Assembly: GCA_046485185.1 (NCBI GenBank)
Contig: JAWOHL010000005.1
Coordinates: forward strand, 27,605-91,604
Source: Candidatus Fermentibacteraceae bacterium
GTDB lineage: Bacteria; Fermentibacterota; Fermentibacteria; Fermentibacterales; JCC-6
DNA length: 64,000 nt
Direction of reading: 5' to 3'
Part shown: piece by piece, positions 1-37,036 of the stretch
Layout: each line of letters starts with the position of its first letter
How positions within the stretch are numbered: position 1 is the stretch's first letter
Program-made: the position numbers and the translations under genes
Notes under the pieces: generated by a model
Databases searched by the model: none
The model's input: the letters and a program-made list of their open reading frames with translations, nothing else
What the model was told of the DNA's origin: nothing

Positions 1-672
1 GAGAACGCTGAGCCGGTCCTCGAGGTACTCCCGTGAAACCCAGATGTAGCTCATGCAAAGGGCCATCACCCCGGCGTAGTTCTCCACATCCCCGAAGAAA
101 GCCTGCATGAATCCCCCTGAGACCATCAGGAGAACGAAGAAGGGCCATCTTCTGCCGAGTTCACGGCATGCGAACAGTACCGTCACGAGAACGAAGACAA
201 ACCCCATCCCTGACGAATAAACCGAGTAGACCTTAAACGGGTTGAAACGAACGGGGTCGCCGAACGCCCGCCATATCGACCGGATGACAGAGCACGAAAG
301 CATCTCGTCCAGAGTTGCCCTGAATCCACCGCATAGAAGGTTGAACGTGTGCACCAGACCGTCATCGTTGACGAACCCGTTGGAAAGCAGCAGGAAGATG
401 ACAAAAGCCGGCAACGCCACGCCAAAGGAGTACACCGCGGCCCGCTTCAAAGGGACGGGGTCGTTGCCTGGCAACTGACGGCCCGATTTCTTCAGAAGCA
501 GCAGCCCACCGGCGAAGACCATGAAGATGCCCACCAAAGACAATGGTGCGATGTGCCTCAACTGGTTGAAACCGTAACGCGGTGATCCCGAAATGTACGC
601 GGAGTAAAGGTAGAACAGCAGCTGCAGGGCAGTCAGGACAATGATCGCAATGGTGGGGTTCCTCTGTTTCAT
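1..672 (-). CDS. polytopic membrane protein, function unknown (partial; start codon in window, gene continues past left edge)
   Basis: Manual reverse-complement translation from ATG (plus-strand CAT at 670-672) is open for 224 codons to position 1. GC3 is high. Several hydrophobic helices are present (IAIIVLTALQLLFYLY, SLVGIFMVFAGGLLLL, VALPAFVIFLLL, GMGFVFVLVTVLFA). It is absent from the ORF track only because it is truncated by the window edge. Confidence 0.5.
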   Translation of the reverse strand, partial: MKQRNPTIAIIVLTALQLLFYLYSAYISGSPRYGFNQLRHIAPLSLVGIFMVFAGGLLLLKKSGRQLPGNDPVPLKRAAVYSFGVALPAFVIFLLLSNGFVNDDGLVHTFNLLCGGFRATLDEMLSCSVIRSIWRAFGDPVRFNPFKVYSVYSSGMGFVFVLVTVLFACRELGRRWPFFVLLMVSGGFMQAFFGDVENYAGVMALCMSYIWVSREYLEDRLSVL

Positions 673-765: not shown

Positions 766-2916
766 TTGAGAGAAGTGAACACCATCTGCACCACGCCTCC
801 CGGGTGCCATTGCGGATGCGGGGTGTGTCTGAGCGTTTGCGATGGCCGGGTCACCGGTGTCAGGGGAAACCCTTCCAACCCCTACAACCGGGGTTACATG
901 TGCCGCAGGGGGCTTGCGGTCACCGGCACGCTCTACAATCCCGATCGCGTGCTTCACCCCATGGTCCGCACCAGAGCGGGGGAGTGGCGAAAAGCCCCCT
1001 GGAAGGAAGCCCTCGATCGTGCAGCTGATTCCTTTCTCGATGCCCGTGACAGATTCGGACCCCGTTCGGTGCTCTTCATGAAAGGTACCGGCCGGGACAT
1101 AGGCCCCTGGCTTTCACGTCTCGCGTACGGTTTCGGAACCCCCGAGTACTACGCGCTGGGACCCGGTTCGGGTTCCGCCTGCCTGATGCCGCGGATGAGC
1201 GTATGCACTTCCCTTTTCGGGGGCTGGTTCACAGCCGACTGCTCCCAGTACTTCTCTGACAGGTACGACAATCCTTCCTGGAGGCTTCCCCGGTGCATCC
1301 TTATCTGGGGCTCCAACCCCATTGTCTCGAACCCCGACGGTTTCCTGGGGAAGTGGATCATGGACTGCATCAGGATGGGGTCGAAACTGGTTGTGGTGGA
1401 CCCCAGGAACACATGGCTCGCCGGGCGGGCCGATGTTCACCTGCGGATCAGACCCGGTACCGACGGCGCCCTTGCCATGGCTTTTCTCAACAGGATGCAG
1501 GCCACCGGGAACTGGGACCACGATTTCACGCGCAAATGGGTAAGCGGTTGGGAAGAGGCTTTTCTGGCCTCCTCATCCTGGAGCCCCGAAGCGGCTTCCC
1601 GGGAGTGCGGCATTCCCTCTGAAACCATTGTCCGGGGGGCCGACCTCTGGCTGAATGCTTCACCGGCGGCGCTTCAATGGGGCGTTTCGGTTGACATGAG
1701 CGCTTCGGCGCTGGGTACGGCCCACGCCCTCGCCTCCCTTGTCGCCCTGTCTGGAAACCTGGATGTGCCGGGAGGGTGCGTTGTGGTTTCTGACCCCTTC
1801 GGGATACCCAGAAGGGGAGGCCTGGAAGCCCCCCCCGGGAAGACGGGCGCATCGCTTTACCCCATGACCACAATGGGTTACCCCTACGCCAGTTCTGATG
1901 TCCTTCTCGACGAGATGGAGGCGGGTAGGCATGTCGCCTGCGCCTGGGTGCAGGGTTCCGGGACCGTGGTGAACGGTTTCGCGGCGCCTGACAGGGCCGC
2001 ACGGCTTCTGTCGGGCATCGGCGAGGTGGTGGTCTGCGACCTTTTCATGACGACCACCGCCGAGCAGTTCGGAACGGTTTTCCTGCCTGTGGCCTGCTAC
2101 CCTGAGCGCAACGGCATTCGCAACTGGTGGTACCAGCTTGCTGCCGTGAACAAGGCCGTTCAGCCGTTGGGTGAGACCCGAAGCGACATGGAGATCGTTC
2201 TGGGTTTCGGCCGAAGGGTCGCACCTGAGCACTTTCCATGGACCGACGTCGAAGGCTGGTTCGACCATGTCCTTGAACCGTCGGGGATGAGTTGGAAGGA
2301 GCTTTCGGAAAGGGGATGGGTGATGCCCGGGATCATGTACAGCAAGCATGAATCGGGTCTCTCCAGGTCTGACAGGGAACCGGGGTTCCCGACCCCTTCG
2401 GGGAAGGTCGAGCTGCAGCCGATGATAATGGAGACGGCCGGTCTGCTTCCGGCCCCATGGTACGTGCCCCCTCCGGCTCTTTCCGAAGCACATCCGCTTA
2501 CGCTCTCAACAGGCGCCAGATCACCATTCTTCTTCCATTCCGAGCACAGGAACGTGAAGTGCCTTCTTGAAAGGAACCCTCTGCCGTTTGTGGAGGTAAA
2601 CCCTGTTGACGCCATGACCAGCGGCGTTCGCGAGGGGGAGTGGGTAACCCTGTCGTCACCCTGGGGAAGTTGCGGAAGGGTGGTCAGCATCACCGGGACC
2701 GTCCCGCCGGGCACCCTGATGGCACAGCACGGATGGTGGCCCCCCGGGCTGCCCGAGGCGACCGGCCGCCTCCTGAACATCAACAACCTGCTGCCCGCGG
2801 GCATGCAGGGCAGGGGCGGGCTGGGTTACCCGTTCAGGTGCATTCCCTGCGGCATCTCGCCCGGCCCGGCGCTTCTTCCGGTCAAAGAACCCCATGAAGG
2901 GAAAAACGGCGATTGA
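766..2916 (+). CDS. molybdopterin (Mo/W-bis-PGD) oxidoreductase catalytic subunit, MopB superfamily
   Basis: 716 aa. The N-terminal Cys cluster CHCGCGVCLSVC...GYMCRRG is the typical 4Fe-4S motif of formate-dehydrogenase/DMSO-reductase-like enzymes. SD GGGAGGA lies about 8 nt upstream of a TTG start. There is no twin-arginine signal, so it is probably cytoplasmic. Confidence 0.8.
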   Translation: MREVNTICTTPPGCHCGCGVCLSVCDGRVTGVRGNPSNPYNRGYMCRRGLAVTGTLYNPDRVLHPMVRTRAGEWRKAPWKEALDRAADSFLDARDRFGPRSVLFMKGTGRDIGPWLSRLAYGFGTPEYYALGPGSGSACLMPRMSVCTSLFGGWFTADCSQYFSDRYDNPSWRLPRCILIWGSNPIVSNPDGFLGKWIMDCIRMGSKLVVVDPRNTWLAGRADVHLRIRPGTDGALAMAFLNRMQATGNWDHDFTRKWVSGWEEAFLASSSWSPEAASRECGIPSETIVRGADLWLNASPAALQWGVSVDMSASALGTAHALASLVALSGNLDVPGGCVVVSDPFGIPRRGGLEAPPGKTGASLYPMTTMGYPYASSDVLLDEMEAGRHVACAWVQGSGTVVNGFAAPDRAARLLSGIGEVVVCDLFMTTTAEQFGTVFLPVACYPERNGIRNWWYQLAAVNKAVQPLGETRSDMEIVLGFGRRVAPEHFPWTDVEGWFDHVLEPSGMSWKELSERGWVMPGIMYSKHESGLSRSDREPGFPTPSGKVELQPMIMETAGLLPAPWYVPPPALSEAHPLTLSTGARSPFFFHSEHRNVKCLLERNPLPFVEVNPVDAMTSGVREGEWVTLSSPWGSCGRVVSITGTVPPGTLMAQHGWWPPGLPEATGRLLNINNLLPAGMQGRGGLGYPFRCIPCGISPGPALLPVKEPHEGKNGD

Positions 2917-3686
2917 ACATGCGTGGGGATGGTCTTTCGGGCTTCATGGAGTCCGTGCCGCAAAGGCTCGGGTTTCGCACTGCGGGACTCGGTGGAGTTC
3001 CGCTGGAAGAAGCCCTTGGCATGATCGCCGCAGCGGGGTACGCCCTGGTCGAGTTCTGCATGGAGCATCGGGATGCCTTGTCCTACAGTGGGAGCCTGTC
3101 CGGGCTTGGATTGTCGTCCGTGAGCTATCACGGGAAGAAAGACTCTCCGGATGTCCGTGAGAGAATGATCGATTCAGCAATCCGGAAAGCAGTCGAGCTC
3201 GGAGCCGGAGTTCTGGTCCTCGGTTCTCCCTTGAGTTGTCTTTGCAGCCGTGAGGCTTTCTTCGAGGAGTGCTTCAGAACGATGGATATGCTTCCCAAAA
3301 GCATACGACCCGCCTGGGAGCCCGAGCCGGGAACAGTTCTGAAAGATCTTGAGGCCTTTGGGGAACTTGCGGATCACCTGGGTGCAAAAGCCGGGCTCAA
3401 TCTCGATTTCGGGCACGCCTTTCTTGATGAATTGAGCCCTCCCGAGGCAGTGAAGTCATACGGAGACAGGATCCTGCACACGCACATCGAAGACATGGTT
3501 TGCGGGGTTCACAAGCACCTCATTCCCGGCCGGGGAGACTTTCCCTGGAAGGCCATGTTGCCGGCACTTGACGGGATACCTTATTCCGGACCACTTGTTG
3601 TTGACCTTTTCGAGCTTCCAGACGCTCCCGCGTCATATGTTAGGGCATCTTATGATGGAGTTCTCCGCGAACTGGGGGCTATATGA
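2913..3686 (+). CDS. sugar-phosphate isomerase/epimerase-like TIM-barrel protein (xylose-isomerase-like fold)
   Basis: 257 aa. HTHIED-type metal-binding motif and ELGAGVLVLG pattern. Its start overlaps the upstream stop by 4 nt (translational coupling). Confidence 0.6.
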   Translation: MNMRGDGLSGFMESVPQRLGFRTAGLGGVPLEEALGMIAAAGYALVEFCMEHRDALSYSGSLSGLGLSSVSYHGKKDSPDVRERMIDSAIRKAVELGAGVLVLGSPLSCLCSREAFFEECFRTMDMLPKSIRPAWEPEPGTVLKDLEAFGELADHLGAKAGLNLDFGHAFLDELSPPEAVKSYGDRILHTHIEDMVCGVHKHLIPGRGDFPWKAMLPALDGIPYSGPLVVDLFELPDAPASYVRASYDGVLRELGAI

Positions 3687-4717
3687 AGGCAAAGGGTTAT
3701 TCCATAGGGGTTGGCCTCACCTCCGCGTGTCCTTTCTCATGCAGTCACTGCTATTCGGGGGCCGGAAAGAATCCCGTGGATCTCGACCCATCAAGGTTGT
3801 TCCGCTTCATGGACAGCTTTCCGGCTTCGGCAATAAATCTCGGGACCGGTGAATCGTGCATGCACCCGCAGTTTCTGCCCGTTGTGAACGAAATCCTCGA
3901 TCGTGGGGTTCCTCTGGCGCTGACAACGGCTGGCCCCAGCCTTTCAGCGCTGCCCGACAGAATTCTGGAAAGACTGCATGATGTTGACCTGTCTCTCGAT
4001 TACCCCGTGGCTGAGCTTCATGACGCGGTGAGGGCGCCGGGTGCTTTCGGCATGGTCCTCGATGGAGTCCGGCGCTGCAGGGAGCTCGGGGTTACGGTTT
4101 CGCTGGCCATGTGCCTCATGAAGAGCAATGCGGAACACATGGAGGGGATGTGCCGTTTGGCCCGCGGTCTTGGCGTATCCCTCCGGGTCAACGTTTACAA
4201 GCCAGTTTTCAGCAATGATCCAAAACCTTCCTACAACGTGTTCTGGAACTCGGTTTCAACCCTTTTCAGTGAGACCGAAGTGGTTTCCTGCTCCGAACCC
4301 GTGGTGAATGCCGCACTGGCGTACCACGGCAACCCCTGTTCCTCCTCGGGGTCACCATGCGGGATCCACGGTTTTCGGGTCTCCCCGTTGGGAGAGGTTC
4401 TGCCCTGCGTCTACTGGGGACCCACGGGGATCAGCATGGAGCGGATCATCGACGAACCCGGCCTTCTGGAAGTGTGCGGAGGGATGTGTCACGGTGCAGC
4501 GCTGCCCGGCGACTGCTCGGACTGCCCCTGGAAAGGCTTCTGTACGGGAGGGTGCGCCGGAAGAAGGTATTACACCGGGCTTTCCGGCCCGGACGAGTAC
4601 TGCTTTCATCTTAGGGGCGTTCGTCCCCCCGAACTGGAACTTGCACCGGGAACCGGTGAAGGCTTCATCCACTCCGGGTATCTGTGCACGATGATCGGCC
4701 GACCAATTGGAAGCTGA
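3683..4717 (+). CDS. radical SAM enzyme with C-terminal SPASM domain (1 of 3 tandem)
   Basis: CPFSCSHC is a CX3CX2C motif. A GGEP-like region follows. C-terminal Cys-rich SPASM segment (CVYWG...CGGMC...CSDCPWKGFCTGGCAG). Overlaps upstream stop by 4 nt. Confidence 0.85.
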   Translation: MKAKGYSIGVGLTSACPFSCSHCYSGAGKNPVDLDPSRLFRFMDSFPASAINLGTGESCMHPQFLPVVNEILDRGVPLALTTAGPSLSALPDRILERLHDVDLSLDYPVAELHDAVRAPGAFGMVLDGVRRCRELGVTVSLAMCLMKSNAEHMEGMCRLARGLGVSLRVNVYKPVFSNDPKPSYNVFWNSVSTLFSETEVVSCSEPVVNAALAYHGNPCSSSGSPCGIHGFRVSPLGEVLPCVYWGPTGISMERIIDEPGLLEVCGGMCHGAALPGDCSDCPWKGFCTGGCAGRRYYTGLSGPDEYCFHLRGVRPPELELAPGTGEGFIHSGYLCTMIGRPIGS

Positions 4718-6023
4718 TGGTTTTCTTCACCGGTTCGTTTCCCCCGGGGGGGTGAGCGCTGTTTTCAACGCGCTCACGCTTGAGATCACAACGAATCCCC
4801 GGTTCGTGTCGCCCTTCGATCCTGAAACCGTTCTGGAGGGCTACAGGAGCTTCTGTTCATCTCCTTCAGTCACCATGGCGACTTTTTTCGTAACGGGAGA
4901 CTGTCCCCGAAAGTGTGGCTACTGTTTTGTGCCCCGCACACTGGGAACCATGACCGAAACCGAGGTCGATCACGGGCTTGCATTGCTTTCCGACCTTGCA
5001 CCGGGAAAAGCGGACGTACTCATTTACGGCGGTGAGCCGCTTCTCAAGCCTGAGATCGTGTTACGGATAATCCGTGGATCGGGGGATGACCGCAATCTGT
5101 GTCTGGCCACGGGCGGATGGGACCTTTCCCGGGATGTGGCCCATGCAATGGCGGAACGCAACGGCTTCGTGATAGTCAGCATCGACGGCGCAAGGGACGT
5201 TCACAACGATCTGCGACCTCTTTCGGAAGGTGATTCGTACGATTCCGCGGTGAAAACATTCCACGCCTTCCGTGACGCCGGTTGCCGGGTGGGGCTCAGT
5301 TTGACGGTCACGAAGGGGAATGCCCGCAGGGTCAGGGATGATTTCGGCTATCTGATGGAGACCCTGAGGCCTGATGACATGGGGTTGAACGCATGGATGC
5401 ATCCAAGGCCGGGTCTCGGTTCGAACCCTTTCGAAGCTCGCTGGGAGGATGTTTTCGAAGCCGTTACAGCCTCTCTCTCCGATGCCCTGGCAGCAGGGAT
5501 GTACGTTGAACAGCTCTTTCGGCGGCTCAGACCTCTCGTCACCCGCGCTCCAAGGCTAAGGGACTGTCCATCCAGGGGTGGCAGGCTCGTTTTCGTTCCC
5601 GGCGGCGGAGTGAGCCCGTGTGACTGCATGGCGGCTGCGGGAGTCAATACTGTTCGTGACCGGGAAGGCATTAAAAAGCTGCTTTTCGACTTTTCCACGC
5701 TCGTTCCCGTTTTCAGGGAAGGGTGCCTTTCCTGCCCCTGCGTTGCCCTCTGCGGCGGCGGGTGCCTTTACGACGCCCTTGCGTGTACCGGCTGCATTTC
5801 CGGTGTCCGCCAGGAAAGGTGCAGTTACGAGAGGGCCCTTCTCGGTTGGATGGTGGGCACCATCCTTGATAATCAACCCCGGGACAGGGCACCCGGGGTC
5901 CTGTCCATCGGGGAGATGACAGGCTTCCTCCCTGATGGAATCCTCGAAAAGGCCCGGATGCCGCAACCCGAGGCCATGCTTGGGGGGGAGATGATATGCC
6001 TGAAACGGGATGGGTCGAACTGA
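4707..6023 (+). CDS. radical SAM enzyme with SPASM domain (2 of 3 tandem)
   Basis: CPRKCGYC is a CX3CX2C motif. YGGEPLL. C-terminal CLSCPCVALCGGGC SPASM signature. Overlaps neighbours at both ends. Confidence 0.85.
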   Translation: MEADGFLHRFVSPGGVSAVFNALTLEITTNPRFVSPFDPETVLEGYRSFCSSPSVTMATFFVTGDCPRKCGYCFVPRTLGTMTETEVDHGLALLSDLAPGKADVLIYGGEPLLKPEIVLRIIRGSGDDRNLCLATGGWDLSRDVAHAMAERNGFVIVSIDGARDVHNDLRPLSEGDSYDSAVKTFHAFRDAGCRVGLSLTVTKGNARRVRDDFGYLMETLRPDDMGLNAWMHPRPGLGSNPFEARWEDVFEAVTASLSDALAAGMYVEQLFRRLRPLVTRAPRLRDCPSRGGRLVFVPGGGVSPCDCMAAAGVNTVRDREGIKKLLFDFSTLVPVFREGCLSCPCVALCGGGCLYDALACTGCISGVRQERCSYERALLGWMVGTILDNQPRDRAPGVLSIGEMTGFLPDGILEKARMPQPEAMLGGEMICLKRDGSN

Positions 6024-7171
6024 GGCACAACTGTTTTGTGAACCCTTTCTCAATCGAGTTCTTCTTTGGAGGGTCCCCCCCGGCGGACGGGCCTGTCTCA
6101 CCGCCACCCGAGCCGTCGCTTCGGCTCAGGGCGGTACAGGCGGTCGTAACGGGGAGATGCAACCTGATGTGTTCGTACTGCAGCGCCAGGATAGCGGGGG
6201 GGTTCAAGGGTGACATGGATCACGCCACCCTCGATGCGGTACTCTCACACTCCGATCCCGATTCTTTGCTTCTCGTGACCGGGGGCGAGCCTCTTCTGCA
6301 CCCAAAGGCCGTCAGAACGCTGATCCGGGGCTGGAGCGGGCAGTCCGTTCTTTTCACCAATGGCGCCCTTCTCGACAGAAGGACAGCCCTCTTTCTGAAG
6401 GAACACGGTACGGCGCTGGTCGTCTCGATGGATGGCTTCGAAAGTGAACACAACCGCTTCAGGGGCGATTCCTGGAAGGCCGCAGCGGCAGCCCTCGATC
6501 TGGCGCGTGAAACGGGTTTGCCCGCCGGGATCTCACTGGTCGCGGGGTCGCATAACGCCGGGTCGCTTCCGGAAAGCCTCTACGGGCTTCTTAAGAGATT
6601 CAAGCCAGCAAGTTTCGGGGTCAACATACAGCACTACACCCCCGATGCTTTCTCTCCCATCAGCGCCGATGAGTATTCTCGGATAATCCTCGGTGCGTAC
6701 AGGTTCAGCCTGGAAACGGGTGTGTTCGTCGACCAGGTTGCCAGGAGGCTGCTGCCCATCGTTACAGGGCATTTCCGGCACAGGGACTGCGCTGCCCAGG
6801 GTGGGAAGATCGTTTTCCGACCGGATGGCTCCGCCAGCAGTTGTGTTAACACAAGGGGAATCGAGCAGTGGGGAAACAGAAATCCGGTTAACTACCCGGT
6901 TTGCGCGGGTTGCCCTGCGCTTGGCGTCTGCGGCGGAGGGTGTACCTGGGACGGTATTCACCTGACCTCCGATGGTTGTGGCCCGGACCCCAGGAACTGC
7001 GTCTGGACACTCGATCTTCTCAGGGCTGTTTCCGAAACCGTTGAGGAGAGGCTTCCCCGTTCCGTCGCGCGACCGTCCCGCAGTTTCCTTGCCTCACTCT
7101 TCGAAAACCTCTGCAGAAGGGCTGGCGCGCCACTTGCGCAGTCGCTCGGACACGGGGAGGAAGACCGGTGA
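5996..7171 (+). CDS. radical SAM enzyme with SPASM domain (3 of 3 tandem)
   Basis: CNLMCSYC is a CX3CX2C motif. TGGEPLL. C-terminal CAGCPALGVCGGGC SPASM signature. Confidence 0.85.
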   Translation: MPETGWVELRHNCFVNPFSIEFFFGGSPPADGPVSPPPEPSLRLRAVQAVVTGRCNLMCSYCSARIAGGFKGDMDHATLDAVLSHSDPDSLLLVTGGEPLLHPKAVRTLIRGWSGQSVLFTNGALLDRRTALFLKEHGTALVVSMDGFESEHNRFRGDSWKAAAAALDLARETGLPAGISLVAGSHNAGSLPESLYGLLKRFKPASFGVNIQHYTPDAFSPISADEYSRIILGAYRFSLETGVFVDQVARRLLPIVTGHFRHRDCAAQGGKIVFRPDGSASSCVNTRGIEQWGNRNPVNYPVCAGCPALGVCGGGCTWDGIHLTSDGCGPDPRNCVWTLDLLRAVSETVEERLPRSVARPSRSFLASLFENLCRRAGAPLAQSLGHGEEDR

Positions 7172-7779
7172 AAGGCTGGAGCAGGGAGAAGGCGGCGGCT
7201 TACTCCGAGGGAAGGCGCCCTTCCCCGGCTGACGATTGTGTGGTTGACACCCTTCTGGGGAGGGAACGCATTCTGGAGCTTGGGTGCGGCCCGGCACTGG
7301 TATCCGGCAGGCTATCTGCTTCGCAACTGGTGTGTACCGACATTACCGAGGCCTTTCTACCGGTGGCAAGAGTTAACGCACCTGCGTCAACAGTTTTGTG
7401 CGCTGATCCGGTGAAGCTTCCCTTCAGACTCGGGGTGTTCGACACGGTTCTTGCCATGGCCGTCCTTCATCACCTGGAAAGGTCGGACCTTGATGCGGCG
7501 CTCCAGGAATCCCATCGGGTTCTGAACCCCAGGGGCTGGTTCCTGCTCCTCGAGGACTGGTCTTTCACCGATCCCACTCCGGTCGAAATGGAAGCGAAGC
7601 AGGCTCGTTTTGAAAAAGGTCACGACGAGTTCCACCTGACCTGGGCCGAATGGGACGAAGTCTTTAGGAACTCGGGATTCGTGCTTCTGAAACGGCAGTG
7701 GCCCGAAAGGTTTTTTGGTGATCCCTCCGAAAAAAGAAGGGTGCGGATGATGGCTGCCCTTTATTCAAGGCTTCCCTGA
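7168..7779 (+). CDS. class I SAM-dependent methyltransferase
   Basis: ILELGCGPA is the glycine-rich motif I. About 200 aa Rossmann-like pattern. ATGA overlap with upstream gene. Confidence 0.7.
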   Translation: MKGWSREKAAAYSEGRRPSPADDCVVDTLLGRERILELGCGPALVSGRLSASQLVCTDITEAFLPVARVNAPASTVLCADPVKLPFRLGVFDTVLAMAVLHHLERSDLDAALQESHRVLNPRGWFLLLEDWSFTDPTPVEMEAKQARFEKGHDEFHLTWAEWDEVFRNSGFVLLKRQWPERFFGDPSEKRRVRMMAALYSRLP

Positions 7780-7823
7780 AGACACTTCTCGTTCAGTCAT
7801 GGCTGGGAAGAGCCCAGCATCCG

Positions 7824-8921
7824 GTGGCGCCTCTGGGATTGCTGTCCGTGGCATCGTCCATGCCGGGCGGTGTGGAAATAGTTGACCTGAACGTCTGCAA
7901 TGATCCCCTCCGCATGCTCTCAGAGAAGCTTGATTCCCTGAAACCAGATGTGGTGGGTATCTCCCTTCGAAATGCCGACACAACTAACGCTTTCGATCCG
8001 TACAGCTATCTCCCCGCTTTTCTTTTGCAGCTGCGCATCGTTGCCGAAAGGGCTCCACGGGCGGAGATTCGCGCTGGAGGGGCTGGTTACAGCCTCTTCC
8101 ACCGGGAACTGGAGGCCGAAGCGCGTGTGATCAGCGAGGGAACCGTTGGCCATCATGAAAACAGCATTCCATTGCCCTCCTGGGACCTGATCGACCTTGA
8201 GCCCTACCTTCCGTTCCAGAAAAACCTGTCCATTGGTGTGGAAGTCAGCCGGGGCTGCGATCTCAATTGCTCATACTGTGTCTACCCGTCACTTTCCGGG
8301 GTGCGCAAGCAGGACAAACCGCCGGAAGACATCCGCTCCGAAGTGCTTATGCTGAGGGCCAGGGGAGTGAGGCATCTGTTCCTGTGCGCTCCCGTTCTGA
8401 ACCACAGACCCGGAAGAGGCGAGGAAGTGGCGCAAGCAATGGCCGGAACGGGTGTGACCTGGGAGGCTTACCACTCCCCGCTGGGTTTTTCAGAAAGCTA
8501 CGCAAGCCTTGCCCGGGAATCGGGTTGCACCGCGATCAGTTTCAGCCCTGACGGCGGTAGTGATTTCGACATGAAGGCCCTCGGGAAAGACTTCACAACC
8601 CGGGATGTAAGGATTGCGGTCGGAAATGCATCGCGGGAAGGTCTTAAAGTGTACATAAGCCTGTTCCCATACCTTCCCTGGTCATCACCTGTGGCCATGA
8701 GCAGGGCGTTCATTTCGGGAAGGAGGTGGGGAAAAGTGGCCGGGGCCGGTCTCGCCAGGTTGCGCTTCGGCGCCGTGCGAAGGCTTCCTGGAAGCGCGTT
8801 CGGTCCGGGCAAACCGGCGCTTCACGGTGCTGTTCCCCCAGGTGAGTTCGTTCTGCCCCAAAGGCCCTGGATGACCCTTTTCAGGTTCTTCAGGGCGGCA
8901 TTTGAAAAGCGTCCGGGTTGA
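7824..8921 (+). CDS. cobalamin (B12)-binding-domain radical SAM protein
   Basis: N-terminal B12-binding-like region (VEIVDLNV...PDVVGISL) followed by CDLNCSYC (CX3CX2C). The first in-frame start after the upstream stop is GTG at 7824, so the N-terminus may be slightly short. Confidence 0.7.
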   Translation: MAPLGLLSVASSMPGGVEIVDLNVCNDPLRMLSEKLDSLKPDVVGISLRNADTTNAFDPYSYLPAFLLQLRIVAERAPRAEIRAGGAGYSLFHRELEAEARVISEGTVGHHENSIPLPSWDLIDLEPYLPFQKNLSIGVEVSRGCDLNCSYCVYPSLSGVRKQDKPPEDIRSEVLMLRARGVRHLFLCAPVLNHRPGRGEEVAQAMAGTGVTWEAYHSPLGFSESYASLARESGCTAISFSPDGGSDFDMKALGKDFTTRDVRIAVGNASREGLKVYISLFPYLPWSSPVAMSRAFISGRRWGKVAGAGLARLRFGAVRRLPGSAFGPGKPALHGAVPPGEFVLPQRPWMTLFRFFRAAFEKRPG

Positions 8922-9417
8922 TTCCCATGCCGGGTTCTTCCATTCTGGATACCAGAACTCCCGCAAACTCCGAGTCCCTTTTCATAACCTGTCTGATCCC
9001 CGCCTTCCCCGACCATGCAAGCCGCAGGGTAGCAACAACTGTTCCGGTGGAGAGGACAGTCAGTTCGCCGGGTGTACCGTATATCGGAAGAAGATCGAGT
9101 GGAAATGCGAACGGGGCGCACGAGCTGAATAGGTGGCCACCGCGAAGGGTGTAAAGGAAGTAGGGAAGTCTTGCCTCTACTATGGTTTCGAACCTTATTG
9201 TGTGAAATGCGCTGCCGCCGTCCCTGAAGGCCCCCGCCCAAAGCTTTTTTCCGGATATGACAGTGAAGGAACTTTCGATGGGCTTTTCCCTGCGTATGGA
9301 AAGGGGGGAAACTGGAAACTGCGTCTCCCAATTCATCGTTCCTTCGGGCATCCTTACTTCTGTGACGTCCCTTTCTTCTCTTGTTCCCACCATTGGACCC
9401 TCCCTTGATGTCACCAT
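8890..9417 (-). CDS. hypothetical protein (atypical lower-GC composition)
   Basis: 175-aa ORF convergent with the B12-rSAM gene and divergent from the NTP-transferase, sharing an AT-richer 130-nt intergenic region. Sequence is protein-like, but GC3 is lower than in neighbouring genes, and an overlapping + strand 91-aa ORF competes. Confidence 0.35.
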   Translation of the reverse strand: MVTSREGPMVGTREERDVTEVRMPEGTMNWETQFPVSPLSIRREKPIESSFTVISGKKLWAGAFRDGGSAFHTIRFETIVEARLPYFLYTLRGGHLFSSCAPFAFPLDLLPIYGTPGELTVLSTGTVVATLRLAWSGKAGIRQVMKRDSEFAGVLVSRMEEPGMGINPDAFQMPP

Positions 9418-9551
9418 GATGGGGCGGTTCTGTTAAGGCTGTGTTTCCCGTTTGTGAATTGACTTTCACGCAGGCTGTTCCTTATTGTCATTAAGAAGAA
9501 GCCCTGTGCTCGTAGATCTGGACCATCCACTCTCTAAGTATCGATTGGAAA

Positions 9552-10265
9552 ATGGCTTACCACAACAAACTTAGTTATCTAAGTCCGTCCCCCATAGTTC
9601 TTGCGGCGGGAGGGGGGAGGAGGATGGGGGGGGTGGAGAAGGCGTGCCTGAAAGTGGGTGGGAGAAGTCTTCTGGAGCGGCATTTCGGTAACTTCGCCGC
9701 GTTGGGTGTCACTGCGGACAGGGTTTCGGTGGTGTACGGCACCGAGGGTGTGAGGCTTGAGACTGAAAGGCTGGGCGGCAGGCCGGTGAAGTCGGGTTTG
9801 CCCGGCGCTCCGGGAACCCTGGGCTCGTTCATGGCTGTTTTTCCGTCCGGGGAGTGCCTCGTGGTCCATGGCGACCTTCTCTGGGAACCTTCAATGGCCT
9901 TTACCGCAATGAAGTGCCCTGGCGACGCTGTGATACCCGTCGATCCCCTGTCGGTCGATCGCGAGGCCATGAAGGCCGAGGTATACGGGGGATTGCTTGT
10001 CAGGCTGTCCAAGGACCTGAAGCCCGCGGAGTGCTCGGGCGAGTCCATGGGCATGTTCCTTTTCCGGGGGCATGTTCTGCCCGACCTCCGTGCCTGCTGT
10101 ACGAAGGCCGCAATGGAATTTGGTTGCCGGGCCGCGCTTGACGATGCTGTGACCTTTCTTGCTCAGGTCAGGAAGGTTGCCGTGGTTTTCGTTCCCGGAA
10201 GCAGGTGGGACGAGATTGACACCCCGGACGACCTGGCAAGGGCTGAAAGGGTATTCAATGGGTGA
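9552..10265 (+). CDS. MobA-like / sugar-alcohol-phosphate nucleotidyltransferase (NTP_transferase fold)
   Basis: LAAGGGRRMGG matches the (L)AGGxGxRMG NTP-binding motif, and the C-terminal EIDTPDDL is MobA/IPCT-like. Only ATG 9552 precedes the conserved motif. Confidence 0.7.
   Translation: MAYHNKLSYLSPSPIVLAAGGGRRMGGVEKACLKVGGRSLLERHFGNFAALGVTADRVSVVYGTEGVRLETERLGGRPVKSGLPGAPGTLGSFMAVFPSGECLVVHGDLLWEPSMAFTAMKCPGDAVIPVDPLSVDREAMKAEVYGGLLVRLSKDLKPAECSGESMGMFLFRGHVLPDLRACCTKAAMEFGCRAALDDAVTFLAQVRKVAVVFVPGSRWDEIDTPDDLARAERVFNG
9555..9595. repeat. direct repeat copy 1 (GCTTACCA..AAC..AGTTATCTAAGTCCGTCCCCCAT), 23-nt perfect core at 9573-9595
   Basis: Same core 23-mer recurs at 12790-12812 with an imperfect ~15-nt 5' extension. 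It lies inside the first 15 codons of the NTP-transferase CDS. Confidence 0.8.
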
Positions 10266-11013
10266 GATCAACGCATGGGACCAGGTATGGAAGGATTTTC
10301 CAACCGGTGGCCCGTTGCATGGTCTGGGTGAGTTCCTCTCCCGGCGGGCGGAACTGAAGCGGCTCGTCGTGACCGAGGTCTTCCGCGGGGCGCGGGTGCC
10401 CCCTGACGGCACGGTTCTCGAGGCCGGATGCGGAACGGGCAGCGTCATGGGTCTTCTCGCCGAAAGGGGTTTCCGCGTTGTGGGTGTTGATCTGTCCCCC
10501 GCCGCGCTTGTGCATGCCGCGTCGCATTCCCGTGAGCTTTCGGTCGCGACCGTCACCAGCCTCCCCTTCGCCAACGGAGCCTTCGACCTGGTGTACAGCA
10601 CGGGAGTTTTCGACCTTCTGGACGAACAAGACCTTTTCAGTGCGGTGGGGGAGGCGCTTCGGGTAACGGCCCCCGGTGGGCGGATCGTTCTTGTAACCGC
10701 GGCGCCCTGCCGGCTTCACCGCCGTGTCATGGGCCGCCTTGAAAGAAAGAACAGGTGGAGGTACGGCCCCAAAAGGGAGATCAAGTCATTGTCCGGTATC
10801 GTACTGGGTCACCGTCCCGATGCCCTGGTGAGGGAAAAGGGAAGAGGCTTCGCCCTTCAGCTCAGATTCCTGGTCTACCTTGTGGAGCACCGGCCGCTTC
10901 TCCGAAGGCTTTCACATGGTCTCTTCATGCTGGTCTCGATGCTTCTGTGGCCTCTTAACGCCCTGCCCGGGATGGTTCTGGTCACCACGGTGCAGTTACC
11001 GAAGGAGGCTTGA
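10258..11013 (+). CDS. class I SAM-dependent methyltransferase with C-terminal hydrophobic tail
   Basis: VLEAGCGTGSVMG is motif I. The ORF-track start at 10159 overlaps the upstream gene by about 100 nt. ATG at 10258 (ATGGGTGA overlap with the upstream stop) is the more likely start. Confidence 0.7.
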   Translation: MGEINAWDQVWKDFPTGGPLHGLGEFLSRRAELKRLVVTEVFRGARVPPDGTVLEAGCGTGSVMGLLAERGFRVVGVDLSPAALVHAASHSRELSVATVTSLPFANGAFDLVYSTGVFDLLDEQDLFSAVGEALRVTAPGGRIVLVTAAPCRLHRRVMGRLERKNRWRYGPKREIKSLSGIVLGHRPDALVREKGRGFALQLRFLVYLVEHRPLLRRLSHGLFMLVSMLLWPLNALPGMVLVTTVQLPKEA

Positions 11014-11765
11014 TGAAGTCCGTCCGGGAATTGAAAAGCGTCTGTCAGCCTCCCGGTCTGGATATGTGCCTTTACAGGCGGTTCGTGATCAGGCCCGTGA
11101 GCATTCATCTCACGAGGTTATTCATTGCCGCGGGTATCGGGGCTGACACGGTCTCGGTCATCAAAGGGGTCATCGCCCTGGCCGGTGCAGTGCTTTTCGG
11201 GCTGCGACCCCTTCCCGCTGCTCTGCTGCTTCAGTTCTCCTTCCTCCTCGATGCCTGCGACGGCGAAGTTGCCCGCTTTACGGGAAGCTGCTCACGGGCC
11301 CGGGGCGAGTACATCGACAAACTTGGGGATGCGGGTTCCCGCAGCATTTTCCATCTCTCCTGGGGGATAGGCGCCTTCCTTGCCGGGGGAGGATGGCCCG
11401 CCCTGGCGGCGGGTGCGGTGGTGGGATGCCTTTGGCTCACAGTGAGGTTCTGCTCTGTTGAAACCCTTCTTGAAAGCTTTTCGAACCATTCGGGCTCCGA
11501 GGGCTCAGCCGGGGAGAAGGCCGCGCTCGAAAAACTGTTTGTCAGAGATCCCGGGTCGGGAAGGATCGAGCACTTTTTCTCACTCCTCATCCACCCATGG
11601 GTGAACCTTGCCCTGCTGGCGGCCGTATCATCCCTTTTCACATACCGTGGGGTCTCCGGCCTTACAGTCCTTTTGTGGGCCTACACCGGGCTCTGGCTGG
11701 CAAACACCGTTCGCAAGGTCATCACATGCGCCGATGTAATGAACTTCAGGCGCCGCGACCCGTGA
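11010..11765 (+). CDS. CDP-alcohol phosphatidyltransferase family integral membrane protein
   Basis: DACDGEVAR...GEYIDKLGD matches the family signature D-x2-DG-x2-AR...G-x3-D-x3-D. Several TM helices. ATGA overlap with upstream gene. Confidence 0.8.
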   Translation: MMKSVRELKSVCQPPGLDMCLYRRFVIRPVSIHLTRLFIAAGIGADTVSVIKGVIALAGAVLFGLRPLPAALLLQFSFLLDACDGEVARFTGSCSRARGEYIDKLGDAGSRSIFHLSWGIGAFLAGGGWPALAAGAVVGCLWLTVRFCSVETLLESFSNHSGSEGSAGEKAALEKLFVRDPGSGRIEHFFSLLIHPWVNLALLAAVSSLFTYRGVSGLTVLLWAYTGLWLANTVRKVITCADVMNFRRRDP

Positions 11766-12703
11766 ACGCGCTCCTTGCATTGATTGGGTCGGTGCTGGCC
11801 GTTGTGAACTCAGGGGCCGACCGGGTTCTGCACCTCTCCGGAACGCCGGTGGGTATCACAGCTGTCGGAGGGGAATACTGGGTGGTTACCTGCGTTGATC
11901 CGGCGGGTGTTTTCCTTCTGGACCGAAGCGGCTGGACTGTTTCTGAGTATCCCGGTGACTTCCGCGAGCCCCAGGGGACAGGATTGCTCGGAGATGAGCC
12001 TCTGGTGTGCGACAGGGGAGCGAACCGCCTTCATGTAGGTTTTCCCGGGGTCTCCAGAGCGGTGGAACTGCCGGGAGGGCCTTTTGCCGTGACGACGGCG
12101 GACTGGACCGGGAACGGGGAACGGACTGCAGTGGTTACGCTGAGGGATTCGGGTCAGGTGGTCCTCGTGACGGAAAACGGGGCGTTGGTTCTGGCTGCGC
12201 TGCCGGGCGCCCGGACGGCAGCCGCGGTCGACACGGATGGCGATGGCGACGATGAACTGCTTGTAGCGTGCTGCGGGACCGGGCTTCACCTGGTGGTTAA
12301 CCCTGAAGACGGGGGCGAACCTATCGTGAGGCGAATCGGAGTTCTGGGTGATGGCGTTAAGGCATTGGCCACCCTTGATATGGATGCCGACGGCGACCCC
12401 GATGCGGTGGGGATAGCGTGCGCCGAGGGAGGCGTGTGCTGGTGGGAAAACCCCGGCCCGAGCGGTTCGGAATGGTCAAGGCACGACCTTGACCCCGGGG
12501 TCTCGGGCCCCAAATCCATCGCGGTATCCGGCGAAAGGATCCTTGTGTCGGCGCTGTTCAGCCCGTCAATGCTCTACGGCCCAGGTGAGATCAGTTACCT
12601 GCCCCGGGGTTGCACGGCATGCGCCTTCGGCGCTGAAGGGACATTCGTTCTGGCGCATCGCGCAGGCTTCATCATGGAGTTCACGGCAGCCCCTTCTCCT
12701 TGA
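11762..12703 (+). CDS. secreted FG-GAP/VCBS-repeat protein
   Basis: Likely GTG start at 11762 (GTGA overlap) giving a signal-peptide-like N-terminus VNALLALIGSVLAVV. Asp-rich Ca-binding repeats DTDGDGDDELLV and DMDADGDPDAVGI. The ORF-track start at 11597 is probably an upstream extension. Confidence 0.6.
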   Translation: MNALLALIGSVLAVVNSGADRVLHLSGTPVGITAVGGEYWVVTCVDPAGVFLLDRSGWTVSEYPGDFREPQGTGLLGDEPLVCDRGANRLHVGFPGVSRAVELPGGPFAVTTADWTGNGERTAVVTLRDSGQVVLVTENGALVLAALPGARTAAAVDTDGDGDDELLVACCGTGLHLVVNPEDGGEPIVRRIGVLGDGVKALATLDMDADGDPDAVGIACAEGGVCWWENPGPSGSEWSRHDLDPGVSGPKSIAVSGERILVSALFSPSMLYGPGEISYLPRGCTACAFGAEGTFVLAHRAGFIMEFTAAPSP

Positions 12704-35325: not shown

Positions 35326-36107
35326 TGGAACACCTCCCGATCATACTGGCGGGAACTGCCCTTCTGTTCTGCTTTTTCTTCGCCACAAGGCTTTTAAAGT
35401 CTCCGTTCTGGAAGAGAAGGCAGCTCCGAAAAGCGTCACTGATGGCGGCCCGGGGCAACATAACCGCCATGACCGGCTACCTCAGGGCCAACATGGACAG
35501 GGGCAGGGTTTCGTGCCCACTCACCAACGCACTGGTGTACTTCTATATACGCTCCGGTGATCTGGACAGCGCCGAAAAGATAGTAACCGACGCCATGGGC
35601 AGGGGCGACAGCTCCGGTGGCGCACTCGCTCAGCTTGCGTACATTGCCCAGGGCCGCAGCGAATGGGAAAACGCCGAGAAGCTCTACAGAAAAGCCATGG
35701 AGGCTGAGCCGTCCCTGGCCCCCACGCTGGGGATGAACATCGCGGGCTCCCTGATCCAGCGCAACACACGGCTCGATGAAGCCGAAGACCTTCTGAACCA
35801 GGCTCTCGATTCAGAGAACGGGCCGTCGCGGAGTTCGGTCCACCTGAACCTCGCCATGCTGAACTCACTGCGGGGAAGCCACTCTCAGGCCAAAGTCCAT
35901 GCCCTCACGGCGTACGAACTCATGCAGGACCTCGAGATCACCCGCCTTGGAAGGGCTCAGGCGCTGGGTCTCGCCGCCGGGGCATCCAGAAAGATGAAGG
36001 ATCCGGTCGAAGCGGCGAGGCTCTCCCAGAAGGCCCTGAAAGTCATGGGGGATCTGTCAGGCGCGGAGAGGCTTCGTACAGAGCTTCAGGAAATGGCTGG
36101 CAGTTGA
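35325..36107 (+). CDS. TPR-repeat membrane-anchored protein
   Basis: N-terminal TM helix followed by TPR-like helical repeats. Confidence 0.55.
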   Translation: MEHLPIILAGTALLFCFFFATRLLKSPFWKRRQLRKASLMAARGNITAMTGYLRANMDRGRVSCPLTNALVYFYIRSGDLDSAEKIVTDAMGRGDSSGGALAQLAYIAQGRSEWENAEKLYRKAMEAEPSLAPTLGMNIAGSLIQRNTRLDEAEDLLNQALDSENGPSRSSVHLNLAMLNSLRGSHSQAKVHALTAYELMQDLEITRLGRAQALGLAAGASRKMKDPVEAARLSQKALKVMGDLSGAERLRTELQEMAGS

Positions 36108-37036
36108 GGAAGGCTCTATGGGCTGTCATTCTGGGAGTGGTGGTCTATACGGCGCTGGTGCTGAGGTCCGACGTGTCCAGGGTGGGCCGGGCCATTTCAG
36201 CTATCCATCCCGCATGGATCCCGGTCTTTCTGGCGCTTCCCCTCTCGAACTACTTCTTCAGGTTCCTGAAGTGGAACTACTTCCTGCGCAGGGTCGGGGT
36301 TTTTATCCCCAAAGGCGAGAGCCTGGCGGTCTTCATCGCAGGTTTCTCCATGACGGTATCGCCCGGCAAGTTCGGTGAGCTCGTTAAATGCGTCATCCTG
36401 AAGGAGAGGCGGGGAGTGCCCGTTTCAATCACCAGCCCCGTGGTGGTGGCTGAGCGGATCACCGACCTTCTCAGCATGGTGTGCCTGGCCGCGGCCGGCG
36501 CGGCCCTTTCGGGGGGCGGTGCGGTGCTTCCCGCCATCGCTGCCGGGGTGGTCTTCGTGTCGTCGGCCATGGTCTTTCTTCTCTGGACCCCGGCGTGGCG
36601 GCTGGCGGCACGGACCGCCTCCCGGCTTCCCGTGCTGAAAACGAGAACCGAAGCCCTCGAAGACTTCAGACAGTCCGCCATTATCCTTCTGGACTTCAGA
36701 AGCATGCTGTTTTCGGTTCCCCTTGGGATTCTGGGATGGGGTCTCGAAGCGCTTGTTCTGTGCGCCGTTGCTGCCTCGATGGGGGTTTCCCTTCCGGCCG
36801 GAGTCGCGCTTCTCAGCCATGCCGCAGGAACCATTGCCGGCGCCGTAAGCATGATCCCCGGAGGCCTGGGCCTCACCGAGCTGACAATAGACGGGATCCT
36901 GGGCGGCTCGATGCCCCACGCTCAGGCGGCTGTCACCACGCTGCTCATGCGCTTCTGTACGTTATGGTTCGGGGTTCTGCTGGGACTGGCATTCATTGCG
37001 GTGCTGGGAAGAAAAACAGGTACGAAAACCAGATGA
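36104..37036 (+). CDS. lysyl-PG-synthase-TM-like 'flippase-like domain' membrane protein (UPF0104 family)
   Basis: About 8 TM helices. Conserved FxGFSMTVSPGKFGELVKCVIL...AERITDLL pattern of the LPG_synthase_TM family. Confidence 0.65.
   Translation: MRKALWAVILGVVVYTALVLRSDVSRVGRAISAIHPAWIPVFLALPLSNYFFRFLKWNYFLRRVGVFIPKGESLAVFIAGFSMTVSPGKFGELVKCVILKERRGVPVSITSPVVVAERITDLLSMVCLAAAGAALSGGGAVLPAIAAGVVFVSSAMVFLLWTPAWRLAARTASRLPVLKTRTEALEDFRQSAIILLDFRSMLFSVPLGILGWGLEALVLCAVAASMGVSLPAGVALLSHAAGTIAGAVSMIPGGLGLTELTIDGILGGSMPHAQAAVTTLLMRFCTLWFGVLLGLAFIAVLGRKTGTKTR

Follow-up and report, generated by a model that had tools for sequence, protein, structure and literature searches.

A 64,000-nt stretch of contig JAWOHL010000005.1 (assembly GCA_046485185.1, positions 27,605 to 91,604) from a Candidatus Fermentibacteraceae bacterium, referred to here as the window, carries near its start a module of ten core genes, numbered g1 to g10 and followed by an FG-GAP repeat gene, g11. 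Related loci in other genomes are named L001 and so on. We tentatively read this module as a pathway that builds a tailored phospho-alcohol head group of the polyol or cyclitol type, activates it with cytidine triphosphate (CTP), and passes it on in a Kennedy-like transfer to an envelope lipid or glycoconjugate; our confidence in this reading falls a little short of even. It is the best explanation of the module because of the co-conservation of the other genes with g8 and g10, two gene fusions, the small-molecule lineage of the MopB protein, and the lack of a precursor peptide gene. Gene content, translational coupling, co-conservation, family assignments, and intact catalytic motifs are direct observations. 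An initial annotation, made from the first seven genes, had suggested a small-molecule or lipid/cyclitol tailoring pathway, and a pathway of this kind (small-molecule, cyclitol, or lipid head group) remained the best-supported reading.

That annotation had described a seven-gene operon ending at position 8921. All seven plus-strand open reading frames (ORFs) were present where it had placed them, with Pfam domains in agreement, and the overlap it had claimed for every junction was confirmed by measurement (4, 4, 11, 28, 4, and 4 nt from g1 to g7) with the g7 start corrected to a CTG at 7776. In g7 there is no in-frame ATG, GTG, or TTG upstream of 7824, and the frame is open to this CTG, which overlaps the g6 stop as CTGA; in the g7 homologues the identical codon is TTG, GTG, or ATG, and the B12 domain has the same N-terminal sequence, KxLLVQ.WLGR. 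The downstream boundary proved wrong: g8 to g11 form a further translationally coupled set, overlapping by 8, 1, and 4 nt, and g8 to g10 are co-conserved with g1 to g7. The genes missed in this way, for a cytidylyltransferase, a second methyltransferase, and a cytidine diphosphate (CDP)-alcohol phosphotransferase, are the most informative of the module. The module does lack a transporter, as had been noted, yet it ends in an integral-membrane enzyme (g10).

Table 1. Genes of the module and the adjoining features in the window (SAM, S-adenosylmethionine; MGD, molybdopterin guanine dinucleotide).
Feature	Position	Strand	Product and characteristics
g1	766..2916	+	MopB oxidoreductase, bis-MGD type, cytoplasmic, 716 aa, TTG start; acetylene-hydratase/dehydroxylase-like; Pfam Fe4S4, Molybdopterin, Molydop_binding
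g2	2913..3686	+	Xylose-isomerase-like TIM barrel (isomerase, epimerase, or dehydratase type); PF01261, 62 bits
g3	3683..4717	+	Radical SAM/SPASM enzyme without N-terminal extension; MftC/ScmF/NirJ-like, all scores under cut-offs
g4	4707..6023	+	Radical SAM/SPASM enzyme; short N-terminal beta-hairpin plus helix domain
g5	5996..7171	+	Radical SAM/SPASM enzyme; g4 paralogue
g6	7168..7779	+	Class I SAM methyltransferase; Pfam Methyltransf_11
g7	7776..8921	+	B12-binding radical SAM enzyme; CTG start inferred from homologues
Antisense gene	8890..9417	-	175 aa, family unassigned; between g7 and g8; lineage-specific, outside the conserved core
g8	9552..10265	+	LicC/IPCT/PntC-type cytidylyltransferase (phospho-alcohol or phosphonate); Pfam NTP_transf_3
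g9	10258..11013	+	Second class I methyltransferase (Methyltransf_11); C-terminal hydrophobic helix
g10	11013..11765	+	Integral-membrane CDP-alcohol phosphotransferase; PF01066
g11	11762..12703	+	FG-GAP repeat protein, PF13517; short hydrophobic N-terminus

The eleven window proteins were mapped onto 38 distinct related loci; a scan of one genome per species returned 35 loci, and a word-indexed search returned only 51 relatives of g4 at E <= 1e-5. All ten core genes were found in 15 of the 38 loci and eight or nine of them in 13 more, where the missing genes were mostly attributable to fusions, contig ends, or masked DNA. The nearest loci, in Hyd24-12/Fermentibacteraceae metagenome-assembled genomes (MAGs), showed 85-91% protein identity and full synteny. 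The ten-gene core occurred in three gene orders across Fermentibacterota, Calditrichota, LCP-89, Electryoneota, and "Deltaproteobacteria" MAGs, representing at least four candidate phyla. The order of the window was shared by Fermentibacteria, Aegiribacteria, and Sabulitectum; in the second order, found in Calditrichaeota, LCP-89, Tariuqbacter (Electryoneota), and further MAGs, the B12-radical SAM gene is moved to the front; and the third, in MAGs of the "Deltaproteobacteria" type (delta-type loci), is shuffled and partly divergent, with g8 to g10 interleaved among g1 to g7. Flanking genes were unrelated from locus to locus. The two fusions join MopB and the TIM barrel in one 1019-aa protein in L002 and the cytidylyltransferase and the g9 methyltransferase in L043. 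Across the mapped loci, the earlier view of a single coupled operon that is co-conserved in relatives was thus borne out. No described counterpart of the gene combination was found in the searchable literature, a review from 2026 on radical SAM enzymes that modify lipids (PMC13459092) included, so the combination can be called undescribed, as it had been initially, as far as that literature goes. Every component belongs to a known superfamily; what is new is the radical, B12, and molybdenum tailoring block within what would be a Kennedy/IPCT-type head-group pathway.

Within the window, a 630-nt gap separates g7 from g8 and holds the antisense gene, which runs 32 nt into the 3' end of g7. The product of this gene had no Pfam or NCBIfam match, and its substitutions per codon position (17/11/54 against L006 and 22/19/50 against L007) are, judged from the alignments, those of a gene under purifying selection. 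It is intact in L010 and L011, is limited to Fermentibacteraceae-level relatives, and is absent from L001, L002, and the other phyla. A promoter and terminator scan gave four promoter-like sites against 2.2 expected, one of them at 9459-9488; the counts were close to the shuffled-sequence level, and the scan was therefore not used as evidence. Taken at face value, the gap, the antisense gene, and the promoter-like site part the module into two blocks, and relatives of the MopB protein do occur in catabolic-looking modules with major facilitator superfamily (MFS) transporters and MalT-type regulators. On this basis the seven upstream genes might make up a pathway by which an imported organic compound is catabolised or respired, with g8 to g11 as an unrelated neighbouring operon. 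We consider this highly improbable, since g8 to g10 stay with g1 to g7 in all three gene orders and are even interleaved with them in the delta-type loci, the gap and antisense gene occur in a single family-level lineage, promoter-like sites are about as frequent as expected by chance, and the module contains neither a transporter nor a regulator.

Profile comparison of the g8 family with solved structures revealed matches to PntC (6pd1, 7.7e-28) and IPCT (2xme and 4mnd, about 8e-28), and also to LicC, over positions 1-227 of 232. The LAAGxGxR...K nucleotide-binding signature is conserved, and by these sequence features g8 is assigned to the LicC/IPCT/PntC-type enzymes. The alternative that g8 is a MobA serving MopB was rejected: the MobA match (~1e-6) was confined to the N-terminal 100 positions, and L002 (16499-17023), L003 (16726-17358), and L043 (16787-17344) have a distinct MobA-like guanylyltransferase gene after the one for the CDP-alcohol phosphotransferase, a gene that the window lacks. 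The presence of this extra gene in some clusters suggests that MopB is a working bis-MGD enzyme of the pathway. A phosphonate pathway, brought up by the similarity to PntC, is a remote option only, as no phosphoenolpyruvate (PEP) mutase gene was present in any Pfam-annotated neighbourhood.

The g10 protein scored slightly above the cut-off of PF01066 (22.9 against 22), and its profile matched AF2299 (6e-17), IPCT/DIPPS (7e-8), and phosphatidylinositol (PI)-phosphate synthases. Its window sequence, DACDGEVAR-x9-GEYIDKLGD, presents an intact DxxDGxxAR(x9)GxxxDxxxD motif and is accompanied by several hydrophobic segments, features by which g10 is placed in the CDP-alcohol phosphotransferase family. 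The subfamily is small, with 49 clusters at E <= 1e-10, and its named members come from Fermentibacterota-type MAGs. The nearest solved relatives are enzymes that have a CDP-alcohol as donor or inositol phosphate as substrate, and the dedicated cytidylyltransferase beside the phosphotransferase argues for a CDP-alcohol donor. A pairing of a nucleoside triphosphate (NTP) transferase with a CDP-alcohol phosphatidyltransferase has been proposed, without confirmation, for CDP-inositol-dependent lipid synthesis in Bacteroidetes (PMC9246714).

The same cytidylyltransferase fold is paired with a DxxDGxxAR...GxxxDxxxD phosphotransferase in IPCT/DIPPS, in AF2299-type proteins, and in the proposed inositol-lipid cluster of the Bacteroides vulgatus type, and host lineages of the module, as in the case of the Bacteroidetes-type cluster, are found in the Fibrobacterota-Chlorobiota-Bacteroidota (FCB) group. 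The module differs from IPCT/DIPPS in that g8 and g10 are separate genes with a methyltransferase gene between them (the one fused to the cytidylyltransferase in L043) and in that it contains no inositol-phosphate synthase or HAD phosphatase. Its scores also lie far under the equivalog cut-offs (47 against 580 and 38 against 180), and its seven co-conserved redox, radical, and methylation enzymes are missing from all IPCT/DIPPS and PI clusters.

Di-myo-inositol phosphate, a solute, is the product of IPCT and DIPPS even though DIPPS is embedded in the membrane, and these two are the nearest characterised relatives of g8 and g10 (AF2299, with no assigned function, is closer still to g10). The core module is, moreover, without a lipid-synthesis gene. 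These points favour a soluble product made by the same chemistry, in which g10 would join the CDP-alcohol to a second soluble phospho-alcohol, as DIPP synthase does, to yield a phosphodiester compatible solute or cofactor. We judge this outcome improbable. The g9 methyltransferase has a hydrophobic C-terminal helix (residues 255-276 of the long ORF), a g10 homologue shares a same-strand gene run with a Wzx-like flippase in L041, and g10 adjoins an LpxL/PatA-family acyltransferase gene in L035; the Hyd24-12 relatives, furthermore, come from mesophilic digesters, where thermoprotective solutes are not expected. Envelope genes also occur elsewhere beside the module, with Phosphodiest and Wzy_C genes next to the L041 run and a Wzy_C gene upstream of the cluster in L001, and together these neighbours in L041, L001, and L035 lend weak support to a lipid or lipid-linked acceptor.

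The proposed head-group pathway shares its logic with the Kennedy pathway combined with phospho-base methylation, that is, one or more methyltransferases, CTP activation, and a CDP-alcohol phosphotransferase, and LicC is among the g8 matches. Unlike the module, the Kennedy pathway needs no radical SAM enzyme, B12, TIM barrel, or molybdoenzyme. The profiles of g6 and g9 had phosphoethanolamine N-methyltransferases in second to third place among the solved structures in the PDB, a likeness that we regarded as a generic class I resemblance.

The three Pfam domains of g1 all scored above their cut-offs, which places the protein in the MopB/dimethyl sulfoxide reductase superfamily. Its N-terminus, MREVNTICTTPPGC, has no RR (twin-arginine, TAT) motif, in keeping with the cytoplasmic location given initially. 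A periplasmic or respiratory MopB was ruled out, given the lack of a twin-arginine signal and of a four-cluster iron-sulfur (FeS) subunit or membrane-anchor partner in the module. The top PDB match was acetylene hydratase (2e7z, 1.3e-44), followed by the thiosulfate/polysulfide reductase PsrA and by FdhF. Cys139, invariant within GxACxxPR, aligned to the Cys in the SLCTAPR segment of 2vpw (thiosulfate/polysulfide reductase), which we take to be the Mo ligand of that enzyme. The conserved FeS cysteines are C8, C14, C18, and C46 (Cx5Cx3Cx27C). Three additional N-terminal cysteines, to which attention had been drawn before, correspond to C16, C21, and C25; they vary freely among relatives as lineage noise and were rejected as a maturation target on that ground. 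In acetylene hydratase the catalytic Asp13 is adjacent to an FeS-ligating Cys. The phmmer alignment set this C-D pair against C14-H15 of g1, and the corresponding GCH motif was kept in all but one of the 44 full-length family members whose N-termini were compared. With His in place of Asp after the FeS cysteine, g1 cannot strictly be called an acetylene hydratase.

With the delta-type g1 orthologue as query, over 7000 proteins were retrieved at E <= 1e-40; many were ~50% identical and came from Desulfatiglandales, Chloroflexota, and Desulfosporosinus. In the three genomic contexts of this sister family that were examined, the MopB proteins had no TAT signal and no radical SAM gene nearby, a ~110-aa 4Fe-4S protein (111 aa) was present in two of the three, and an MFS transporter adjoined in two of the three. 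A Desulfobacterota-type locus, L044 (1004-17147), consists of three tandem modules of this sister family, each pairing a MopB that lacks a TAT signal with a small ferredoxin. An MFS transporter accompanies two of the modules, a MalT-like regulator lying between these two, and an NrfD-type membrane subunit accompanies the third. The arrangement resembles loci published for soluble catechol dehydroxylases. Those of Gordonibacter are acetylene-hydratase-related and combine a MopB lacking a TAT signal with a small 4Fe-4S protein and an MFS transporter, and homologues of catechol dehydroxylases occur in the CC-1065 and yatakemycin biosynthetic clusters (PMC7028382). A likeness of g1 to the soluble catechol dehydroxylases (Dodh/Cldh, with Dadh related) is suggested by the gene architecture of its sister family; such enzymes also serve as tailoring enzymes in biosynthetic clusters, and the window, in contrast to the dehydroxylase loci, has no ferredoxin partner.

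While the window module contains no ferredoxin and no MFS gene, the delta-type loci L036 and L041 encode a 114-aa Cys-rich ferredoxin-like protein matching the small FeS partner of the sister family. Residues 8 and 49 (window 787-789 and 910-912) separated the two groups cleanly, with Cys8/Gly49 in the cluster MopBs and Ala8/Cys49 in the non-cluster sister family, and from the sequences one FeS-cluster ligand seems to have been exchanged. A rough neighbour-joining tree placed the sister family together with the delta-type cluster clade. By analogy with these relatives we conclude that g1 would act on a small soluble molecule, and its reaction is probably C-O bond chemistry, either dehydroxylation or hydration. 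The initial annotation had also considered that the radical SAM enzymes could be a maturation system for the Mo enzyme; this is unlikely, as the ~50%-identical MopBs of the large sister family work with no more than a small ferredoxin and an MFS transporter, no radical SAM gene being nearby in the contexts examined.

Motif analysis showed that g3, g4, and g5 each carry CX3CX2C, CX9-15GX4C, and CX2CX5CX3C, the SPASM cysteines being invariant in the g4 family alignment (A1). With all three motif sets present, they are full SPASM enzymes, as the initial description of three tandem CX3CX2C plus SPASM proteins had it. The accompanying claim that the three are paralogues was upheld for g4 and g5 (32% identity over 374 aa, E 5e-36) and not for g3, which showed no similarity to either at E 0.01. 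In both fold and sequence, g4 was nearest to anSME, CteB, TigE, ChlB, PapB, and QhpD, with full-length fold matches to CteB and TigE, and much further from BlsE (19), MoaA (17), Tes (16), DesII (14), and BtrN (11.5). A Tes-type (Tes/Mss/Gms lipid-coupling) or BtrN-type (twitch dehydrogenase) identity was rejected for g4 because of this distance from Tes and BtrN. An anSME identity was likewise rejected, as anSME (TIGR03942) was outside the best 25 families for g3 to g5 and no sulfatase is encoded in the module of the window; a sulfatase gene adjoins L041 only. The possibility that the three are ordinary anSME/sulfatase-maturase paralogues, raised as a check at the outset, can accordingly be set aside. 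Weak NCBIfam matches to the DVU_1551 and DVU_1556 families were too far under the cut-offs and were not used. Elsewhere in the window, the minus strand carries two further overlapping radical SAM/SPASM genes, unrelated to these, at 38264-39322 and 39280-40323; they resemble SynChlorMet ScmF (233 bits) and ScmE (144 bits), both under the 400-bit cut-off.

Whether these enzymes act on a peptide was approached from the N-terminal domains and from the small ORFs. Residues 1-52 of g4 form a beta-hairpin and one helix, g5 has a likewise short N-terminal beta-hairpin plus helix, and the g4 family (A1) profile aligns to TigE starting at TigE residue 16. The g4 and g5 orthologues of other phyla have longer N-terminal domains, which in the model of an LCP-89-type g4 orthologue (P0049) reached a predicted local distance difference test score (pLDDT) of 29-49. 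No cluster protein had a Pfam match to PqqD, the recognition element (RRE) of ribosomally synthesised and post-translationally modified peptide (RiPP) pathways. The statement that the operon has no RRE therefore holds at the level of Pfam and is qualified by the short N-terminal domains of g4 and g5 and the longer ones of their orthologues. An all-against-all comparison of ORFs of 30-140 aa between and beside the cluster genes of the 38 loci revealed only shadow ORFs of neighbours and no conserved precursor peptide, in agreement with the earlier failure to see a precursor ORF in the operon.

In an exhaustive HMMER search, the g4 family merged gradually into a larger group of 764 cluster representatives at E <= 1e-30, and two genomic contexts were examined among these wider relatives (of 342 and 282 bits). 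The 282-bit relative (L047 367-1767) lies directly behind a Cys-rich 77-aa ORF (L047 121-354), which carries a CDCSCGCGCPAIC stretch and, with the g4 relative, looks like a pair of RiPP precursor and maturase. The 342-bit relative belongs to a separate orphan cluster (L048 6868-15389, L049 721-9242) of five tandem radical SAM genes, a DegT-family aminotransferase, and a methyltransferase. This cluster resembles the module in having g3-like (23%), g4-like (33%), g5-like (34%), and g6-like (30%, nearly full length) proteins in the same relative order, and differs from it in having two further radical SAM enzymes and the pyridoxal phosphate-dependent aminotransferase but no MopB, TIM barrel, B12-radical SAM enzyme, cytidylyltransferase, or CDP-alcohol phosphotransferase. 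The comparison suggests, at the sequence level, that the three radical SAM genes and the methyltransferase travel as a sub-cassette.

Several observations weigh against the head-group pathway, chief among them that g4 has as its closest solved relatives only enzymes with peptide or protein substrates. In addition, a remnant of the N-terminal domain found in peptide- and protein-modifying SPASM enzymes persists in g4 and g5, and the more distant g4 relative in L047 follows a putative precursor ORF. The g10 motif has a degenerate second half in the delta-type loci. The module is without a gene that makes the starting phospho-alcohol, having neither an inositol-phosphate synthase nor a kinase. 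No family match reaches a curated equivalog cut-off, and every reaction type assigned to the module is consequently an analogy.

The SPASM enzymes might instead modify a protein or peptide, be it a precursor encoded at another site or a cluster protein such as the FG-GAP protein, MopB, or the TIM barrel, with the other genes decorating or serving the product. The fold and sequence of g4, the beta-hairpin and helix of g4 and g5 with the longer domains of their orthologues, and the RiPP-like distant relative all speak for such a substrate, and it is on account of the peptide- and protein-modifying relatives of g4 that we retain it, as an unlikely alternative. It has to contend with the lack of both a small ORF conserved across loci and a Pfam PqqD/RRE match, with the absence of the FG-GAP gene outside Fermentibacterota-type loci, and with the ~50%-identical MopB relatives that function without a radical SAM neighbour, and it leaves the co-conserved cytidylyltransferase and CDP-alcohol phosphotransferase unexplained. 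Compared with anSME, CteB, TigE/TvgB, ChlB, PapB, and QhpD, the module has no precursor peptide, sulfatase, or QhpC-like substrate gene, its SPASM enzymes have a truncated N-terminal domain and scores far under the family cut-offs, and their context is one of nucleotide activation and phosphotransfer.

The g7 protein contains CDLNCSYC at residue 161, and its B12-domain N-terminus is restored by the CTG start; these sequence features place it among the cobalamin-dependent radical SAM enzymes. PF04055 was above its cut-off, and PF02310 was under it (26.8 bits against 32.1). The top NCBIfam scores of g7 were to BzaD (TIGR04385; 133 bits against a cut-off of 450) and TIGR04072 (104 against 360), and those of a delta-type orthologue, 239 and 184, were also under the cut-offs, so that g7 was not taken as an equivalog of either. 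BzaD, a benzimidazole C-methylase, and TIGR04072, assigned to 'ladderane-type' lipid biosynthesis, have a domain architecture like that of g7 as well as the best family scores; no Bza, fatty-acid, or PEP-mutase genes were found in the annotated neighbourhoods. In fosfomycin biosynthesis, Fom3 methylates a substrate that has first been cytidylylated by Fom1, and this logic provides a precedent for radical tailoring of an intermediate linked to cytidine monophosphate (CMP).

The match of g7 to TIGR04072, a 'lipid biosynthesis B12-binding/radical SAM' model, also bears on the idea that the radical SAM enzymes work on membrane lipids in the way of Tes/Mss/Gms, Grs, and Gmm, coupling, cyclising, or methylating the hydrocarbon tails and giving a membrane-spanning or branched lipid to which a head group is added. 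The combination of SPASM-type and B12-type radical SAM enzymes parallels the archaeal tetraether toolkit (review PMC13459092), and the hosts are bacteria of anoxic sediments and digesters whose lipids are uncharacterised. We consider action on the lipid tails very unlikely; the g4 fold, as stated above, is not of the Tes type.

The g2 family profile matched MJ1311, IolI, tagatose/psicose 3-epimerases, IolE, UlaE, and AsbF. An assignment as an IolE, IolO, or ketose 3-epimerase equivalog was rejected, with a top score of 30 bits against a cut-off of 290, and g2 is placed in the PF01261 superfamily only. DegT-family aminotransferases, such as the one in the L048/L049 cluster, act on keto-sugars and inososes. 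A polyol or cyclitol substrate would fit the associations of the module with IPCT, DIPPS, IolI/IolE, and DegT proteins.

In the head-group pathway that we propose, g8 would convert CTP and a phosphorylated alcohol to a CDP-linked intermediate; the most plausible substrate is the phosphate of a polyol or cyclitol, for example inositol phosphate. Soluble enzymes would then remodel the alcohol moiety, possibly while it is nucleotide-bound: g3 to g5 might abstract H atoms for oxidation or for C-C or C-X chemistry, g2 might isomerise, epimerise, or dehydrate next to a carbonyl, g1 might remove or shift an oxygen function in the manner of acetylene hydratase or a dehydroxylase, and g7 and g6 might carry out C-methylation and O- or N-methylation, respectively. 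Finally, g10 would transfer the phospho-head group from CMP to the hydroxyl of a membrane acceptor, either a diacylglycerol-type lipid or a lipid-linked glycan, and g9 may be a membrane-tethered methyltransferase that acts at the membrane. The identity of the alcohol, the order of the steps, each reaction type, and the acceptor are what we infer from the observed gene set.

Among the neighbouring features, the g11 FG-GAP gene was found only in Fermentibacterota-type loci, including L003 and L043, and was absent from LCP-89-type and delta-type loci. Upstream of g1, window 1-672 on the minus strand encodes a divergent polytopic membrane protein that is cut by the window edge and had no Pfam match; the position of this gene is not kept in L006 or L001. 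No Rfam elements or riboswitches were detected at gathering thresholds, and no tRNA was found. In the rest of the 64-kb window, the scan revealed housekeeping genes and no gene for a lipid or inositol precursor; it left out several ORFs, those beyond 53 kb among them. A homologue of the lysylphosphatidylglycerol synthase transmembrane region is located at 36104-37036 on the plus strand, downstream of genes for a penicillin-binding protein and a tetratricopeptide repeat protein, and has no evident link to the cluster.

In its widest form, our reading is that uncultured anaerobes of the FCB group and other lineages may possess an unrecognised class of envelope head group, in a lipid or glycoconjugate, built without oxygen by SPASM enzymes of the peptide-maturase type repurposed for a CDP-linked polyol or cyclitol, together with a molybdenum enzyme of the dehydroxylase type and a B12-dependent C-methylase. 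We put this forward as possible but doubtful. As the module is compact (~12 kb) and self-contained, the hypothesis is directly testable by heterologous expression. If it is true, the product would represent a new class of natural product or lipid, anSME/CteB-type SPASM enzymes would gain a new class of substrates in nucleotide-linked small molecules, and the large, mostly uncharacterised acetylene-hydratase/dehydroxylase branch of molybdoenzymes would gain a biosynthetic role, within an oxygen-free chemistry dependent on radicals, B12, and Mo/W that is without a described counterpart. A head-group pathway would be added to bacterial lipid biology, and geochemists would have a candidate source of orphan polar lipids in anoxic settings. 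A set of uncultured anaerobes, including the Fermentibacterota, which are common in anaerobic digesters and sediments, would then carry a new constituent of the membrane or envelope.

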